UHGV virus genome: UHGV-1465456
Strand: one strand, 5' to 3'
Length of the DNA: 35,465 nucleotides
Origin: a virus
Translations under genes and position numbers: made by a program
Shown here: positions 13,063-20,629 of the stretch, in pieces
Layout: every line of letters starts with the position of its first letter
Numbering within the stretch: the stretch's first letter is position 1
Notes under the pieces: model-generated
Database searches by the model: none
What the model was told of the DNA's origin: nothing
The model's input: only the letters and a program-made list of their open reading frames with translations

Positions 13063-14380
13063 TCTCGATATCCTCGTCGGTAATGGATGCCCCGATGCCG
13101 GTGACGTCAGAGTTTTCGCGCAGGTCGGTCATCGCCGCCTTACGCGTCATCAATCCGTCGCCCAGCGCGGTACTGATCGCGTTGGTGGTGTTTACGGCCA
13201 CCGTTGATCGGTCAACGTCTGACATTTGCCATAGCGGGTTAAACTCAAACGTGAAATCGTCCGGCAGCGGCTTTCCGAGTTCCGAGCGGTGCATAATGTC
13301 CAGTATCCGGCGCATCGGCAGCCGTAAGCGGCGCTCCTGCAATGAGCTCACCCGGTCGTAATAGTTGGCGAGGTCTGCATCACCAGTAGAGAAGCCTTTC
13401 GGGGATTGACCGAACAGGCGTACCAGCGGGATACCAACGGCACCGCTGATCTGCTCAGCAAACTGCGAAAGAATGTCATCCAGACCACTAAAGCTGTACT
13501 GGTGGGTTTCGAACTTATCCCGCGAGTCCATGAGCGTCATACCTTCATTGCTCTGGAACTGGCGGATCAGGTCGATGTTCTTCAGCAACGCTTCGAACGC
13601 CGGGCCTCCAAGCGCGATAAGCTCGCGCAACTTCTCCACGCTATAGGTACGCAGATGCGCTTTATAGACCAGCTGCGCCGCGCCGACAGTAGCGCTATCG
13701 AACGCAGTAAGCCGATCCCAGATACGCTCTACAACCGACATTCCCCATTCGTTTTCGGTCATCTTCTGCTGGAATGGCAGCGTGACGCCATCAAAGCGGA
13801 TCAGGCGGCTGTGATGGATGCGCCAGGCCGGAATGCCCGTTGCGGTGGTCACCACGTCGTAAAACTCAGGCTTGCCGAGGTCCGGCCCCATCTCTTTAAT
13901 GCGGCGTGTCAGCACCGGGTTAATCATCCAGCGGTCGAGCGGGAGAATGCCCTTAAACTTGCCCTCGCCAATGGTTTCGAGTCGCAGCGGGGTCATTGGT
14001 GCTTGCCCCTCGATCATGATGAAGCCGACCGCGCCGCCGTAGAGGCGCGACCATTTCAGCACGTCGTTCAGCGCATCCCAGATCTGCAACTCATCCAGTT
14101 GCGCTTCGAGGGTGCCACGGTCTTTGGCGTCAATCTCCGAAGTGATGCGAATGCCCTTTCGGGTCATATCGTCCGGGATAGCGTCGACCGCTTCACCGAT
14201 AACCCACGAACCGCGATATGACCATTCCACCAGCATGCGGTTGCGGCTGGTGGAGTTCGCCCGGTAGGTCGATGCTGAATGCTGGTTAGGCGTCTGCATC
14301 CCAACACGGGCGACGAAGTTCTCGTAGCCGTCAGCGGTGGGCTGTGCCGTTCGCTGAGAGGATTGCTTGTTTCGTGCCAT
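12911..14380 (-). CDS. portal protein (489 aa)
   Basis: Size and position immediately downstream of large terminase, start overlaps terminase stop. Confidence 0.7.
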   Translation of the reverse strand: MARNKQSSQRTAQPTADGYENFVARVGMQTPNQHSASTYRANSTSRNRMLVEWSYRGSWVIGEAVDAIPDDMTRKGIRITSEIDAKDRGTLEAQLDELQIWDALNDVLKWSRLYGGAVGFIMIEGQAPMTPLRLETIGEGKFKGILPLDRWMINPVLTRRIKEMGPDLGKPEFYDVVTTATGIPAWRIHHSRLIRFDGVTLPFQQKMTENEWGMSVVERIWDRLTAFDSATVGAAQLVYKAHLRTYSVEKLRELIALGGPAFEALLKNIDLIRQFQSNEGMTLMDSRDKFETHQYSFSGLDDILSQFAEQISGAVGIPLVRLFGQSPKGFSTGDADLANYYDRVSSLQERRLRLPMRRILDIMHRSELGKPLPDDFTFEFNPLWQMSDVDRSTVAVNTTNAISTALGDGLMTRKAAMTDLRENSDVTGIGASITDEDIENAEDEAPPGIGELGDKPPESPGGDPISNEPTADSAGGRGYRKWALRWFKR

Positions 14381-16008
14381 CAGGCCTGTCTCCCTAGCAG
14401 CTCCCAGATGTTCAGGGCTGAATTCATTGGCGCGTAGCTGATCATCACCGAGTCGGCGAGGTTCGGCGACTTGGTGCCATCAGGCTGTTTATCAACAACG
14501 ATTTTCCCCACGCCATTAATGGAGTAGGTCGGCTGCGACAGCTCGATGATGAGTTTGTCTTTGCTCGCCATGGCGCTGCTGATTGAGATGATTTCGTCCG
14601 GGTTGTAGGCCATGCCCTCAACCACGGCGCGATAGGTGTTCTGGAAAAGCTTGCGTAAATGCCACCAGCTCTGGGCCTTGGCGTTGGCGAAGAAGTCCTT
14701 GTTCAGGCGTGCGGCCTGTCCGTTGTCCCCGCGCACCGCTTCATCGTCCGGATCAAATACCGCGCCGCTACCACGAAACGGTGTGGCGAGTATTGACGGT
14801 CGGCGCGCAGCGTTACGCAGTTCGTTGATGGCGCGTGCATCGCCGCGAACGCCAGCGCCCAGGCCGTCCTCGTCGAAGCGAAATTCTTCGAGGTTGTCCT
14901 GTTCGCAAAAGCCGAAGACCTTCTCAACGGACTGGTAAATGTCGCTGCCCACGCCGGACCATTCACGCACGTTCTCCAGAAGGAAGCCGTGACGGGTCGA
15001 AAAGGCATTTTTGTCCCGGCCTTCGTCGGCGACGTCCATCGCGCCCAGTCGCTTGCCCGTTGGCTGAATACCAAGTTTGATATGCGCGTCGACGGCAGCC
15101 TGTACCCAGTCGGACGGGATCAGGACGCCTTCCGCAGATGCGCTGTAGTTCAGGTCAAGTTCCTGCGCCACCACCACCGGATTGTCGATTTTCTCGCACT
15201 CCCTGCGATACCACTCTTCATCCTTGCGAGGATCATCCCGCCAGTGGAATGTGAATACCGGTATCTTCCCGCCGTGACGCTTCTGCGCGAACGGGTTCGC
15301 CATGCCATTAACCGAGCTCAGGTCAATACGGCAACGGGTGGTTTGCGACAGCGCCGCATCAATCAACAGAGGACGCTGGAGGAATGCAGCTTCATCCACC
15401 AGGTAGAGCGTGGTACGGTCACCACGACCGATATTGTCGCCAGCCTCGCCTTTGATGACCGCGCCAGTATCGGGAAACTCAACGCGCATATACGGCGCAT
15501 GCTTCTTCTCGTCCCACGAACCACGAAACTCGATGGGCAGTGTTTCCACGAACTTTCGCGCCTTCCAGAACAGCGCCTTCGGGTCACCGGTGCTGTCGAC
15601 GTATTCCTCTTTACGGGAGCCGAAACCGATAACCATTTCTTTGTTGAAGAGACAAAGCGAGCAGGCCAGCCCGATCGCGGTCCAACTGAGCCCCATTTCG
15701 CGGCTCTTTTCGGTGATGCCGTTCTCCAGTCGTTCGCGCCGCTCCATGATCCAGTGAATCCACTCTTCCTGTTTCGGGAACAGCAGAAAAGGGATGGTGA
15801 CCGGCAGGCCATAATCGATGTTACGCGGGTCAGTAGTCATACCCCAGTCGATGATGAACTGTGCCGGGTTGGTGCGATAAAACTGCTTTAGCGCTGGCAG
15901 CATTTCAGGGTTCTGGCGAATGCGCTGTAAGCGCTCCATCCGCCATTCAAAAACCATCTGGTAATCAGGGTTTCTGAAATCGAATTCAAACGGGAGAGGC
16001 ATGATCAC
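14380..16008 (-). CDS. terminase large subunit (542 aa)
   Basis: Size, position, Walker-B-like LYLVDEAAF motif and C-terminal nuclease-like region. Confidence 0.8.
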
Positions 16009-16478
16009 CCCATCATCTTGCGGTAAATCTCTGCGGCCTGATCTGCGGTGAGGTTGGTCGTCTCGGTCTTGATCGGGCCGCCATCCTTGCCAGTGCTCTC
16101 AACCTTCAGCTTATTGGTGTAAGCGTCGCCAACCTCTTTCGCGGCCTGTTCGATAAGCTGCGCCGTCAGGGAGAAGTTTTTCATCCCCTCGGTTTTGGTT
16201 GCCATGCGGTCAAGCACGCGGAGGCGATAGGATTTGTTCGCTATCGGAATGTCGCTGGTTTCGGTCAGGAACCGTTCGCGCGTCGCGTGGAACATCTCGA
16301 TCCACTTTTTGGCGAGCGTCTTACCGCTGGCCTTCGTGGGGTCGTGAGATTCAGCCTGCTGGCGGGTGATCCTGATCCCGAATTCTTTTTGGACAGCCTC
16401 GACCACCTGCGATGGCGTGTCATAGCACGCAAGCGACTGAATGATGAAGGCTTTCACATCAGGTTTTAATGCAGCCAT
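16005..16478 (-). CDS. terminase small subunit (157 aa, DUF2280-like), putative
   Basis: Position directly upstream of and overlapping large terminase. Confidence 0.55.
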
Positions 16479-16509: not shown

Positions 16510-17166
16510 TTAAGCCAGTCGCAGCATGCACGTCCCGCACGCTCTGGCAATATCGAGATGAGCAACCTCCGCTGGCTGATTCGCCGCATCAATCATTTCC
16601 TGCACGTCCCGGCTCGCACCGTAACGGCGAACCACGCCCACAAACTCTTCCACGTCATGGCCGCGCAGCTTCAGCTTTGGCTGCCCTTCCTGCGTGAACT
16701 TCGGCGCACCAAATTCATCTGTCGCTTGGCAGATGTGATAAAGCTCGTGCTCTATCAGCGCGCAGAATTCCAGATCGGAACATTGCGAGCAGTAATCGGC
16801 GGCCAGCGTGATGATGAACTGCGGCACCCTGCCGAACCATTCATACATCTGCTGCTCCATCCGCGCTTTCTGCCAGCCTCCGGCCCGCATTGCCACTTCT
16901 TCCGCCTGCCCCAGCACGGAACGCCCTTTCTTCTCGAAAGCGTTCGATGCCCAGAGAAAGCACAGATCCGCTTCAAGCAAATGCTGGTGGTCATGGTTGT
17001 AGAGGTCACCCTCATCGCTCAGGATGTGCTGATTCAGCCACTCGCCAACGTCATTAGCGGGCATAATGCTGATGTACGGCTTCGGGTCAGGTGGCATCGT
17101 AAAATGCGCTGGTGGGTGTGGTCTGTTCATGAATAATTCCAGTGCTCCATTATCGAAGCCCCTCAA
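16510..17166 (-). CDS. HExxH motif protein, putative zinc metallopeptidase of unknown role (218 aa)
   Basis: Motif IEHELYH read in translation; no confident family assignment. Confidence 0.45.
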   Translation of the reverse strand: MRGFDNGALELFMNRPHPPAHFTMPPDPKPYISIMPANDVGEWLNQHILSDEGDLYNHDHQHLLEADLCFLWASNAFEKKGRSVLGQAEEVAMRAGGWQKARMEQQMYEWFGRVPQFIITLAADYCSQCSDLEFCALIEHELYHICQATDEFGAPKFTQEGQPKLKLRGHDVEEFVGVVRRYGASRDVQEMIDAANQPAEVAHLDIARACGTCMLRLA

Positions 17167-17190
17167 TGAAGGGCTTCTGTAATGCCGCGA

Positions 17191-17715
17191 TCAGCCAATA
17201 AGTAATTCCGGCTGCGTTACCTGCATGATGTGCTCATGTTCGAGCTCCAGGACGCGCTTCTCTTTCTTCCGCTCGTTCATCAAACGGCTTCCGAACGTGC
17301 CTTTCAGCTTTGAGCGCGTTTCTTTGATGGCGTAGCGATGCTGCAATTCTTCACCCATCGCCATGCGCCGGTTTAGCTGCTCTGCCATCCAGTTGAATGC
17401 TGCGATATAGCTCTCCTTGATTGCCGCAGCAGCTTTCCCGGTGAACCCCATCACAACCATGATCCAGCCATCTTTCGTCAGGCTGTACATCGGGCGAACC
17501 TTGCCCTGCTCATCGATATAATCAGCCGACGCAAAATTGCGTTGGCTAAACTCACGCGAGCAATCAGCCTTAACCTGCTCGATTTTCCTGAGAACATCAC
17601 CGTGTCGCTTGCCGAAGTACTTGGCAATTTTTCTGGATGTGGTAACGACCTCTCCGTTTTTGGCTTGCACCATTTCTCGGAAGTCGAAGGATGGAATAAC
17701 TGAATGATTATTCAT
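17191..17715 (-). CDS. phage regulatory protein Rha family (174 aa)
   Basis: Recalled Rha-family similarity; position between lysis and terminase as in P22. Confidence 0.6.
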   Translation of the reverse strand: MNNHSVIPSFDFREMVQAKNGEVVTTSRKIAKYFGKRHGDVLRKIEQVKADCSREFSQRNFASADYIDEQGKVRPMYSLTKDGWIMVVMGFTGKAAAAIKESYIAAFNWMAEQLNRRMAMGEELQHRYAIKETRSKLKGTFGSRLMNERKKEKRVLELEHEHIMQVTQPELLIG

Positions 17716-17729
17716 AGCGTCTTTACCTT

Positions 17730-18281
17730 TTAGAAAGTGAGCCTGTCTCTGGTTCCGTGATTTTTGTGATATTGCAACTGCATCTCGGCAGCCTTTCTTG
17801 CTTTCACCGCTTCACGGAAATCATCGAAGTAACCAATATGCTTCACCTTCCCAGAGACGTTTATCTTTGCTCTCCACTTTCCCCGCGCTTTATACCAACC
17901 TACTCCTGGGATACCGGTTTTATTTGTGGAGTAAAGGCGCAAATTTTTGCTATTGGCTGCCGAAGTTACTGATCGCAAGTTGTCTATGCGGTTATCACTC
18001 CTATCGCCTGAAATGTGATCAATCTCATTATCAGGCCAGTAGCCGTAATGTAACGCCCAGGCTACACGATGAGATCTATATAACCGGCCGCATATCCCGA
18101 TACGCAAATATCCATCGCTATCACGTGCGCCTGCTACTTTTCCAGCAAAATTAGCATTGGTCGCCCGCCAAGAATTTTCGGTCTTAAAATGAATTTTTGG
18201 TCGCTGCTTCCAACGGATAACACCAGTATCTGGTGCGTATTCCAGTGCTTCTTTCAGATATTCGATAGAAATATCATTCAT
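17730..18281 (-). CDS. HNH endonuclease with AP2-like DNA-binding domain (183 aa)
   Basis: HNH-like DHISGDRSDNRIDNL motif and AP2-like GVGWYKARGKWRAKI...GYFDDFREAVKARKAAE segment. Confidence 0.7.
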   Translation of the reverse strand: MNDISIEYLKEALEYAPDTGVIRWKQRPKIHFKTENSWRATNANFAGKVAGARDSDGYLRIGICGRLYRSHRVAWALHYGYWPDNEIDHISGDRSDNRIDNLRSVTSAANSKNLRLYSTNKTGIPGVGWYKARGKWRAKINVSGKVKHIGYFDDFREAVKARKAAEMQLQYHKNHGTRDRLTF

Positions 18282-18424
18282 CGGATTTACCTTTTAGTGA
18301 TGAACCTTGTCTCACAGGAAATCCGGCCCTCAGATGCTCCGACAGCCAGCCGGTATCCTCAAGGGTCATCCTGAAAGGTTCTGAGTGGTAATATGCGCGT
18401 GAGATGCGCTGTGAAATTCAGATG

Positions 18425-18450
18425 TAAAAAAGCCCCGCATCGCGAGGCTC
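18425..18450 (-). terminator. rho-independent terminator candidate after lysis cassette
   Basis: Imperfect GC hairpin followed by T6 on minus strand. Confidence 0.4.
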
Positions 18451-18481
18451 ATTAAATGGACTTTGTGATTTGCAAAAAAAA

Positions 18482-18949
18482 TTATTTCAGGCATTGCGTC
18501 CTGATGTACTCCTGCAGGTAGTTAACCTGCGCGGTTATCTTGTCGATTCCACTTCGGAGACGGTAATAATTGAGTTCAGCATCTGCTGTAAGTCTTGGGC
18601 TTTCTCCATCGCCCATGCCGCTGGCTCCGGTCGTTGACTTTGCACAGGTGGCGGCGACTTGCAGCCGCTTACGGCCAGCAATGACATCGCTATGCAGACG
18701 CTCAATGGTTTCTTTCGCATCAGCCAGTTCTCCGGTGTATTTGGCATCCAGTGCAGCGACATCACGCTGGCGGGTCTGCATGTCTTTAATGGTGGCGGTC
18801 GCCAGGAGGAGTTTCTCAGTGGCCTTATCGCGCTGGTCTCTGTAAGTGATGGCGTTGTCGCGGTAGTGGTTCACGAAGAAAGCCAGTGCGCCGATTAACG
18901 CCAGCACCAGCAACTGCAGCCAGTAACGCTTAACCAGTGCGCTAATCAT
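18482..18949 (-). CDS. Rz: i-spanin Rz
   Basis: Strong recalled similarity to lambda Rz ([11 protein letters not shown]...[13 protein letters not shown]); N-terminal TM segment. Confidence 0.85.
18535..18720 (-). CDS. Rz1: o-spanin Rz1 lipoprotein embedded in Rz in +1 frame (start at MRKKPLSV)
   Basis: Embedded ORF with lipobox LLAVSGC and Pro-rich mature part. Confidence 0.7.
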
Positions 18950-19891: not shown

Positions 19892-19967
19892 TGGTGCCGG
19901 TTAACGGATTTGAACCGCTACCTATTCACTTACAAGGCGACCGCTCTACCATTGGAGCTAAACCAGC
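19892..19967 (-). tRNA. tRNA, anticodon UGU by manual folding (Thr)
   Basis: Manual cloverleaf: 7-bp acceptor stem, 4-bp D stem with GG in loop, anticodon loop CUUGUAA, T loop TTCAAAT, encoded CCA. Confidence 0.65.
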
Positions 19968-19972
19968 ATGTT

Positions 19973-20047
19973 TGGCGGGACAGCGTGGACTCGAACCACG
20001 ATAAGAAGGTTAACAGCCTTCCGTAATGACCTTTATACGACTGACCC
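19973..20047 (-). tRNA. tRNA, anticodon GUU by manual folding (Asn); one acceptor-stem mismatch
   Basis: Manual cloverleaf: anticodon stem GAAGG/CCUUC, loop CUGUUAA, T arm CGTGG-TTCGAGT-CCACG, encoded CCA. Confidence 0.55.
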
Positions 20048-20110: not shown

Positions 20111-20629
20111 CTAAATGGCTAATTGCATGTCAAGGTTTTTAACAGCAACATGCTTAACTTTCTCAACACGTTTACGCATTTTGAAAGCATTTTGCATTGG
20201 TTGGTACAAAACAAATAATGACGCTTTCAGGATATCGTCAATTTCGTTTCTACAGGTTGCCAGTGAAGGTTTTCTCCATCCCTCGCCACCGCGTCCACAC
20301 ATCTTGCGTGGCTTTGCAGTCGCGTGATAGTAGGATGCAATTGCTCGCTTAGATGAACCATGAGCGTAGTAGCTGAGGAGGATGCCAAAGGCTTTCTTGT
20401 CAATGTACATGACGGAATCAACGACCTGAGAAATCAACATTCCATCATCATCATTACACATTGGCCTTGTCATAATTCTTCCCGGCTCTACGCTCTCCAT
20501 GAACTTCGCTATTACGCTGCTCATGCGCTTTTCCAGACGACCTGAATAAACCCATGCGCCCCACAGTTCAAGCCAGCCATTCAGCCACTCGTGCTGCTCT
20601 TTGGTGAGGTTTAGTTCTCTTATGCTCAT
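20111..20629 (-). CDS. late-gene antitermination protein Q-like (172 aa)
   Basis: Position between nin region and lysis genes; recalled resemblance to Q-family proteins of enteric prophages (not lambda Q itself). Confidence 0.55.
   Translation of the reverse strand: MSIRELNLTKEQHEWLNGWLELWGAWVYSGRLEKRMSSVIAKFMESVEPGRIMTRPMCNDDDGMLISQVVDSVMYIDKKAFGILLSYYAHGSSKRAIASYYHATAKPRKMCGRGGEGWRKPSLATCRNEIDDILKASLFVLYQPMQNAFKMRKRVEKVKHVAVKNLDMQLAI

Follow-up and report, generated by a model that had tools for sequence, protein, structure and literature searches.

Among the systems described so far, those closest to the locus treated here are the HNH homing endonuclease I-HmuI, which belongs to the Bacillus phage SPO1, the mob and seg genes, which are intergenic in T-even phages, and the variable regions of lambdoid phages, which reportedly include a late-operon slot occupied by rha in phi80 and orf201 in P22 and are said to carry the genes known as "morons". 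The locus lies on the minus strand of the virus genome UHGV-1465456, a stretch of 35,465 nucleotides (nt) referred to throughout as the window, and consists of genes for an HNH endonuclease, a Rha-family protein and a protein with an HExxH motif, located between spanin and packaging genes. An earlier reading of the bare sequence (the original prediction) called these three genes and saw nearly identical leaders before the first two, which it took for a duplicated or modular cassette. The gene calls are correct (Pfam HNH_3, Phage_pRha and PF18894), with the AP2 part of the HNH call sub-threshold, and the leader similarity is real. We consider it probable that an I-HmuI-like HNH cassette with its own hairpin has inserted in the conserved structured leader of an accessory slot, and that the HExxH gene lies outside this slot. 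The "duplicated leader" is thus a pair of homologous 3′ arms, the first within a full hairpin before HNH and the second orphaned before Rha, because the HNH cassette, bringing its own hairpin, entered the 3′ arm of the resident leader. The features on which this rests are the following:

18394-18409, minus strand: conserved box GCGCATCTCACGCGCA, just upstream of the hairpin
18279-18388, minus strand: complete structured leader, h-type allele, up to the HNH start codon (covariance model)
18286-18313, minus strand: leader copy 1, the 3′ arm of the h-type hairpin, GAGACAAGGTTCATCACTAAAAGGTAAA, with the Shine-Dalgarno (SD) sequence of HNH (repeat search)
17730-18281, minus strand: HNH endonuclease gene, 183 amino acids (aa) (Pfam and PHROG)
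17722-17749, minus strand: leader copy 2, the canonical 3′ arm, GAGACAGGCTCACTTTCTAAAAGGTAAA, with the SD sequence of Rha (repeat search)
17191-17715, minus strand: Rha-family gene, 174 aa (PF09669 and TIGR02681)

The two leader copies, one before HNH and one before Rha, form a direct, imperfect repeat of 28 nt that is 75% identical without gaps and has a spacing of 564 nt. Their 12-mer CTAAAAGGTAAA occurs exactly twice in the 35 kb, against 0.12 occurrences expected, and a gapped local alignment of both leaders extends the similarity to about 48 nt, with a score reached by none of 2,000 shuffles, so that the likeness goes well past the ribosome-binding site (RBS); the leaders of the metallopeptidase (HExxH) and DUF2280 genes stay at background in the same kind of alignment (11-13 versus 34). 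The start MN[D/N].S common to the HNH and Rha proteins, once offered as another sign of a cassette, is just ATGAAT plus chance.

The HNH segment is an insertion polymorphism. The prophage of E. coli ECONIH5 has a single leader, ...CTGTGAGACA|GGCTCACTTTCTAAAAGGTAAAGACGCT-ATG(Rha), and, in an alignment of the junctions, is without exactly the 564 nt of the repeat spacing; leader copy 2 of the window equals this empty-site leader exactly, and equals also the leader in 115 of the 119 IMG/VR matches listed. Megablast finds the region at 93-94% identity, with a gap over HNH, in many prophages and one phage, among them Omnitron (a Citrobacter phage), E. coli ECONIH5, C 236-04A, TOK-001 and 2021CK-01361, and the annotated gene order of the HNH-less relatives is Rz, Rha, "putative metallopeptidase", DUF2280. 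The block running from the Rz terminator, which forms its left edge in the alignment of HNH-bearing prophages, to leader copy 2 is 100% identical in the window and in the prophages of E. coli ES3 (L002) and ET650 (L003). Its neighbours there differ: LysC/DUF2570 stands in place of Rz to the left in ES3, a KilA-N gene stands in place of Rha to the right in ET650, and the right flanks of the three HNH-bearing prophages are two Rha alleles or KilA-N. Since it is identical among such different neighbours, the block is read as a recently moved unit. In this form the modular cassette first proposed is upheld, the HNH gene being a 564-nt presence/absence polymorphism and the slot genes being interchangeable behind one leader.

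The same arrangement recurs in all ten HNH homologues with 85-100% aa identity: each has an h-type leader upstream, the open reading frame (ORF) of each runs out within a 3′ arm of the canonical type, and at least five different genes come next among the ten. The downstream arm in the contig L009 is a Klebsiella-type variant, which suggests that this arm belongs to the recipient. In the window, leader copy 2 contains the end of the HNH ORF, namely its last six sense codons and its stop codon (RDRLTF*). The cassette is rare: of 5,426 complete E. coli genomes, 2 have it in full, and 1,131 have pieces of the two leaders. Both of the genomes with the full cassette, ES3 and ET650, come from frog-farm samples from Chenghai, Shantou, China, and have different prophage backgrounds, which suggests a recent local spread of the cassette.

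The similarity on which the original prediction rested is thus confirmed, but what it overlooked is that the repeated segment is one arm of a conserved, predicted RNA hairpin. On folding, the 119-120 nt upstream of HNH in the window and of Rha in ECONIH5 adopt one common long irregular hairpin, whose 5′ arm (CCUUUCAG...) pairs with the leader (...CUAAAAGG) around an inner hairpin, then a U-run and an asymmetric loop, GUGAGA. In the h-type hairpin of the window the 5′ arm is at 18360-18378, about 75 nt upstream of the SD-bearing 3′ arm with which it pairs, in a leader of about 110 nt; the minimum-free-energy fold of this leader, at -39.6 kcal/mol (z -2.7), has the SD base-paired. The window and ECONIH5 alleles differ in both arms, and do so compensatorily. 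With ten canonical sequences as its basis, a covariance model recognises a single full element in the window (18279-18388; 47.9 bits, E 3e-11), and over 90 sources it gives 58 matches on the sense strand and 3 weak ones on the antisense strand. The same architecture is predicted in 21/21 diverse sequences folded independently, with the SD-bearing arm paired in 21/21. The covariation alignment has 95.4% of its cells paired and double changes at 26 of the 28 pairs, values reached by 0/500 shuffles, and partners slid along the alignment are only 38-50% paired. Plain MAFFT alignment followed by RNAalifold, with all types pooled, gave a patchy consensus and misaligned the h-type arms, and single-sequence folds and the covariance-model alignment were used instead. 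On the sense strand, G.U wobble cells number 104 versus 14 A.C cells, an excess that argues for a sense transcript, or sense single-stranded DNA, over a plain DNA palindrome. The box at 18394-18409 is kept, with small variations, in every hairpin type collected; in the other types it reads TGCGCA-N4-5-TGCGCA, that is, two palindromic hexamers.

The RNA motif itself appears to be undescribed. With Rfam 15 there was no match at the gathering threshold in the window and no relevant match at E<=10 within 17100-18520, nor any relevant match at E<=1 in loci with canonical A, canonical B, Klebsiella, Aeromonas and type C hairpins. The hairpin is without annotation in the records of phi80, HK106, CUS-3, epsilon34 and HK620, and a literature search found no description of it, and nothing relevant on PF18894 or DUF2280.

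The two leaders of the window are predicted to differ greatly in how far they hide their RBS. In the full hairpins of window HNH (0.003), ECONIH5, phi80 and HK620, the SD is unpaired with a mean probability of 0.003-0.006, as against 0.22 before window Rha, whose SD-bearing arm is an orphan with no 5′ partner and whose RBS follows 14 nt past the HNH stop codon. Leader copy 2 obtains only 14.9 bits (E 0.054) from the covariance model, and a remnant 5′ arm for it inside the HNH ORF was considered and rejected on this score and on a local fold no better than shuffles (z -1.05). HNH would therewith inherit an occluded RBS, and the Rha RBS would be left far more open. More generally, the hairpin may limit translation of the slot genes or make it depend on processing; processing of the RNase III type is a possible role given the version in Shiga toxin (Stx) phages, which has a continuous 26-bp helix at the hairpin base. 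A promoter scan found no sigma-70 promoter before the hairpin, and no consensus for integration host factor was found in the leader region. A classical moron, made up of promoter, gene and terminator, was also considered; a candidate -35 element visible by eye in type A sequences is missing from the other variants, and this architecture was rejected.

The leader is widespread, and so is the variety of what follows it. An exact 16-mer, CTCACTTTCTAAAAGG, is present in at least 119 IMG/VR stretches; among the matches listed, the 115 single "empty-site" leaders have a common upstream context and then lead into at least 15 different N-termini. The hairpin is found in more than 100 viral contigs. 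A canonical element of 132 nt is 100% identical before phi80 rha and before the GIY-YIG gene of HK106, about 85% identical in Stx, CUS-3, Sf101 and epsilon34 phages (the epsilon34 slot holding a GIY-YIG gene), and recognisable in phages of Klebsiella, Hafnia, Providencia and Aeromonas; the hairpin also precedes a KilA-N gene in HK620 and antirepressor and Rha genes in Stx phages. Compared with Pfam at full length, the slot proteins are Rha and KilA-N (each with or without ORF11CD3), T5orf172/MUG113 (GIY-YIG-like) and HNH_3, and a second, clearly different HNH_3 gene occupies the slot in L111. The region is hence a variable accessory slot of the lambdoid late operon, between spanin and packaging genes. 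The C-terminal ORF11CD3 domain (...RWG..KKP.L...IPGLP) is common to Rha- and KilA-N-type slot proteins (L033, L040, L110 and others) whatever their N-terminal domain, and, judged from this shared segment, points to a common partner or function of slot genes. Tandem hairpin-gene units exist in L162 (Rha-Rha), L005, L007, L073, L150 (an Stx phage, with antirepressor and Rha) and L235, and the window is unlike these contigs in that its second unit retains the 3′ arm alone.

Several variants of the hairpin were noted besides. Hairpins like type C, which is the type in L162, occur in L206, L212, L238, L167 and L005, their architecture kept through compensatory changes. The h-type allele stands before an antirepressor gene located upstream of Rz in L150 (156-268; phage Lyz12581Vzw) and in E. 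coli O157:H7 prophages, and its 3′ arm is matched in hundreds of genomes of enterohaemorrhagic E. coli. The contig L007 has, within 1786-2386, three leader copies and a chimeric hairpin, placed before a 75-aa gene, a 61-aa gene and HNH; in the chimera an h-type 5′ part is joined to another 3′ arm at GACAAGG|CTCAC, a join that reads as evidence of repeated crossovers in the internal loop of the hairpin.

As to how the cassette would have entered, the left crossover most likely fell in the conserved region of the terminator and GCGC box and the right one in the conserved loop GAGACA(G)G, which would place the end of the HNH ORF in the resident arm; the L007 chimera has its crossover in this loop too. 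The cassette would spread by recombination through its conserved flanks, possibly begun by a cut made by its own nuclease, that is, by homing, for which the conserved hairpin DNA is a plausible target.

The nuclease itself is assigned to HNH_3 (PF13392), with 67.5 bits where the cut-off is 24.8, and to phrog_99, HNH endonuclease, at E 1.7e-67. Its best sequence match in the PDB is I-HmuI (1u3e), with IDHISGDRSDNRIDNLRSVTSAAN aligned by phmmer to VDHKDGNKDNNLSTNLRWVTQKIN, the catalytic DH..N..N motif. The hairpin is absent near distant HNH homologues (at most 44% identity), and its association is accordingly confined to this HNH lineage. On these similarities and its scattered distribution, the window HNH gene can be annotated as a mobile endonuclease of sporadic occurrence rather than as a packaging factor.

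The genes and signals around the slot, which give the minus-strand order Q-like gene, tRNA-Asn, tRNA-Thr, holin, lysozyme, Rz/Rz1, HNH, Rha, HExxH gene, DUF2280 and the terminase large subunit (TerL), are as follows:

20111-20629, minus strand: Q-like antiterminator gene
19973-20047, minus strand: tRNA-Asn(GTT) gene, between the Q-like gene and the holin gene
19892-19967, minus strand: tRNA-Thr(TGT) gene, also between the Q-like gene and the holin gene
18482-18949, minus strand: Rz, with Rz1 embedded in the same stretch (Pfam Phage_lysis)
18430-18450, minus strand: intrinsic terminator directly after Rz/Rz1, with a GC-rich stem of 9 bp and then a T-run (terminator scan)
17155-17177, minus strand: stable 10-bp hairpin with no T-run, between the Rha stop and the metallopeptidase start (fold)
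16510-17166, minus strand: HExxH gene as the ORF from TTG, 218 aa (ORF list)
16510-17130, minus strand: HExxH gene (PF18894) from ATG 17130, 206 aa (starts of homologues)
16005-16478, minus strand: DUF2280 gene, in the small-terminase position (PF10045, 167.6 bits)
14380-16008, minus strand: TerL, 542 aa

PHROGs and NCBIfam concur with Pfam on HNH, Rha and the spanin, and DUF2280 would, by its gene position, be the small terminase. The three genes of the original prediction come from known families and are in themselves unremarkable, and the variable region of lambdoid phages in which they lie is likewise well known. The tRNA genes are found at the matching position in related prophages too. 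The terminator on the Rz side has a predicted fold of -14.1 kcal/mol (z -3.1), and the homologous site carries a terminator annotation in phi80, HK106 and epsilon34.

The HExxH protein, to which no family had been assigned, is a full-length match to PhageMetallopep (PF18894), with 147 bits and coverage of profile positions 2-134 of 134. Its earlier length of 218 aa depended on TTG 17166, which falls inside the stable hairpin at 17155-17177 (-28 kcal/mol for its 81-nt context, z -3.98), and the start is most likely ATG 17130, giving 206 aa, as in near-identical RefSeq genes and in homologues. PF18894 has more than 3,400 homologues in 90% clusters and 1,112 representatives in 50% clusters, across Proteobacteria. 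In two sets of diverse members, of 77 and 134 sequences, H128, E129 and H132 do not vary; H158, C198 and G199 are invariant as well, and H48, H50 and C201 are invariant or nearly so. An N-terminal HxH (H48, H50) and a C-terminal CxxC (C198, C201) are thus conserved, and many relatives have 50-100 extra N-terminal residues; from this pattern, H48, H50, C198 and C201 may constitute a putative second, structural metal site that bridges both ends of the protein. An AlphaFold2 model built from a diverse profile-search alignment (an alignment of 30 close homologues gave a predicted local distance difference test score of 46.5) shows a zincin fold whose catalytic core resembles that of solved zincins, with minigluzincins and the SprT domain of Spartan closest; its fold neighbours include the latter (7.0), then BepA, BlaR1, YbeY and Wss1. 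Foldseek against the PDB returned nothing significant for the metallopeptidase, a fold search of BFVD returned solely another PF18894 member, and sequence searches of the PDB gave no match for the metallopeptidase (with the sequence alone and with two profiles) or for DUF2280.

DUF2280 lies immediately downstream of the metallopeptidase gene in 80/80 IMG/VR loci, with RefSeq/NCBI prophage contigs in agreement, and the TerL further downstream varies between the window type and Terminase_3. Upstream in the same 80 loci, Rha was detected in about 9 and KilA-N in about 9, and in 20 no reference slot gene was detected from Rz to the metallopeptidase gene. The HExxH gene therefore belongs with DUF2280 and the packaging genes and not with the slot or a regulator, and PF18894 proteins presumably are zincin-like hydrolases that act in or alongside packaging; the gene linkage and the fold are shown, and the role as a peptidase is a putative one.

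Window Rha, the resident gene product of the slot, scores 99.4 bits with Phage_pRha (PF09669) and 113.9 bits with TIGR02681, and its position, in the late operon after the lysis genes, matches that of phi80 rha. Over the lysis, HNH, metallopeptidase, DUF2280 and TerL genes, the IMG/VR contig L004 matches the window at 100% identity; the two differ only at about 17400-17730, the N-terminal (DNA-binding) half of Rha, where nucleotide identity is 56-76%. The difference is a domain-level allele swap, with its left breakpoint at the leader.

A number of points weigh against the insertion of an HNH cassette with its own regulatory hairpin as we picture it, and against the role assigned to its neighbours. 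Ordinary homologous recombination at the conserved flanks suffices to move the cassette without any nuclease activity. The h-type hairpin is not HNH-specific, since it also stands before antirepressor (Stx phage Lyz12581Vzw), KilA-N (L219) and Rha (L215) genes, and the AP2-like tail of the nuclease (residues 122-161) is sub-threshold, at 18.9 bits against the Pfam cut-off of 33.3 (E 0.0019). Formation of the hairpin is a prediction and translational control would be a further step from it. By its predicted fold, SD sequestration is not universal in the family, the SD of the type C hairpin before the first Rha gene of L162 (973-1085) having a probability of being unpaired of about 0.49, just outside the basal helix. 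The covariation alignment was fitted to the structure of the model and many of its sequences are closely related, so that its shuffle control is not to be equated with a probability. Lastly, the linkage of the HExxH gene to DUF2280 is an association and not a mechanism.

Other explanations account for parts of the evidence. That the leaders are alike merely through a strong RBS or chance, with no cassette and no insertion, has in its favour that their exact common core, CTAAAAGGTAAA, includes the SD; yet the ungapped and gapped similarity that no shuffle equals, the background level of the other two leaders, the exact 564-nt empty site in ECONIH5 and the membership of the repeated segment in a covarying helix refute this and leave it a practically negligible chance. 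The analogy drawn originally with ImmR/ImmA modules, in which Rha would be a regulator cleaved or controlled by its cognate metalloprotease, is drawn from the adjoining of the Rha and HExxH genes in the window and from the invariance of HExxH; against an upstream Rha in about 9 of 80 loci stands a downstream DUF2280 in every one, and the window HExxH protein has no Peptidase_M78 domain, which makes such a pair exceedingly improbable. Hardly better placed is the idea that packaging requires the HNH protein as an accessory of the terminase, as with gp74 of HK97, which would explain its nearness to the terminase genes. HNH genes beside terminase genes are reportedly common in phages (PMC3592412 and PMC5304195), and window HNH is 1.25 kb upstream of DUF2280. 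It is, however, not adjacent to the terminase genes, is of the HNH_3/I-HmuI class and not the short gp74 class, is found by several different terminase types, and is missing from prophages whose metallopeptidase, DUF2280 and TerL are 94-99% identical. Moreover, L005 and L011 also carry a 118-aa CxxC ORF just upstream of the terminase genes, in the gp74 position, and HK106 has an annotated gp74-like HNH there in addition to its slot GIY-YIG gene; we regard a gp74-type role as very unlikely.

A more serious contender holds that the hairpin acts as DNA, either as the recognition or cleavage site of slot nucleases or as a folded single-stranded recombination site, loosely attC-like. Slot nucleases of at least three lineages (window HNH_3, L111 HNH_3 and GIY-YIG/T5orf172), junctions in the conserved internal loop GUGAGACA(A)GG at the right end of HNH and in the L007 chimera, the tandem hairpin-gene units and a structure more conserved than its sequence all agree with it, and G.T wobbles are tolerated in single-stranded DNA too, so that the wobble excess would fit same-strand single-stranded DNA as well. 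On the other hand, the SD and start codon are built into the element, which is always co-oriented with transcription, as fits a role in mRNA; no dedicated recombinase is associated with it; and microhomology and phage recombinases suffice for the junctions, of which few were examined. On balance we think a purely DNA-level function unlikely. A combined view, in which the hairpin and GCGC box form an undescribed "cassette leader", would make it both an RNA gate on harmful accessory genes (Rha, KilA-N, antirepressor, nucleases) and a DNA joint for cassette exchange, homed on by HNH and GIY-YIG nucleases, with alleles escaping cleavage through compensatory arm changes; this we put forward tentatively, as a possibility with somewhat more in its favour that we nonetheless doubt. 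The preferred reading remains that of an HNH cassette inserted in a structured leader.

For annotation, this reading explains the duplicated leader, moves the HNH gene to the mobile endonucleases, and places the HExxH gene with DUF2280 and the packaging genes and not with regulation. The hairpin, strongly covarying, predicted to occlude the SD, outside Rfam and present in hundreds of enterobacterial prophages, offers a handle on how accessory genes of the late operon are restrained, and on what makes this site in lambdoid genomes so active in mosaic exchange and so open to incoming nuclease genes.

Set beside described systems, the HExxH protein differs from the minigluzincins (projannalysin, selecase) and the SprT domains of Spartan and Wss1 in having only 10-15% identity to solved structures, in the extra N- and C-terminal elements of PF18894 with their invariant HxH and CxxC, and in a genomic context that is always upstream of DUF2280 and a terminase large-subunit gene. 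With ImmA/IrrE (M78)-ImmR, the window genes have in common only an HExxH protein beside a DNA-binding protein on a mobile element, and they differ in family, fold neighbours, operon and conservation of the pairing. The slot is like that of phi80 rha and P22 orf201, and like lambdoid morons, in its position after Rz/Rz1 and its swappable accessory genes, and unlike a classical moron in that no conserved promoter is seen. The HNH gene resembles I-HmuI and the T-even mob and seg genes in its HNH_3 domain and as a small gene, present or absent at one site, between conserved genes, and resembles free-standing homing genes in that its block keeps 100% identity from one background to another. It is unlike them in residing in a non-coding structured leader, neither in an intron nor beside a conserved coding target, and in an ORF that ends in host-derived leader sequence, its homing role being read from sequence; unlike I-HmuI, its protein has a weak AP2-like tail and not the I-HmuI DNA-binding domains. 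The hairpin, finally, is like the lambda N leader and the intergenic R sites of T7 in being long and irregular, in its place within a polycistronic phage mRNA and in having the SD in its basal helix, and unlike them in having no sequence or Rfam relationship to them and in a role that is here predicted. Both the RBS-sequestering leader and the free-standing homing-endonuclease cassette are thus of known kinds, and the structured leader is the part worth keeping.

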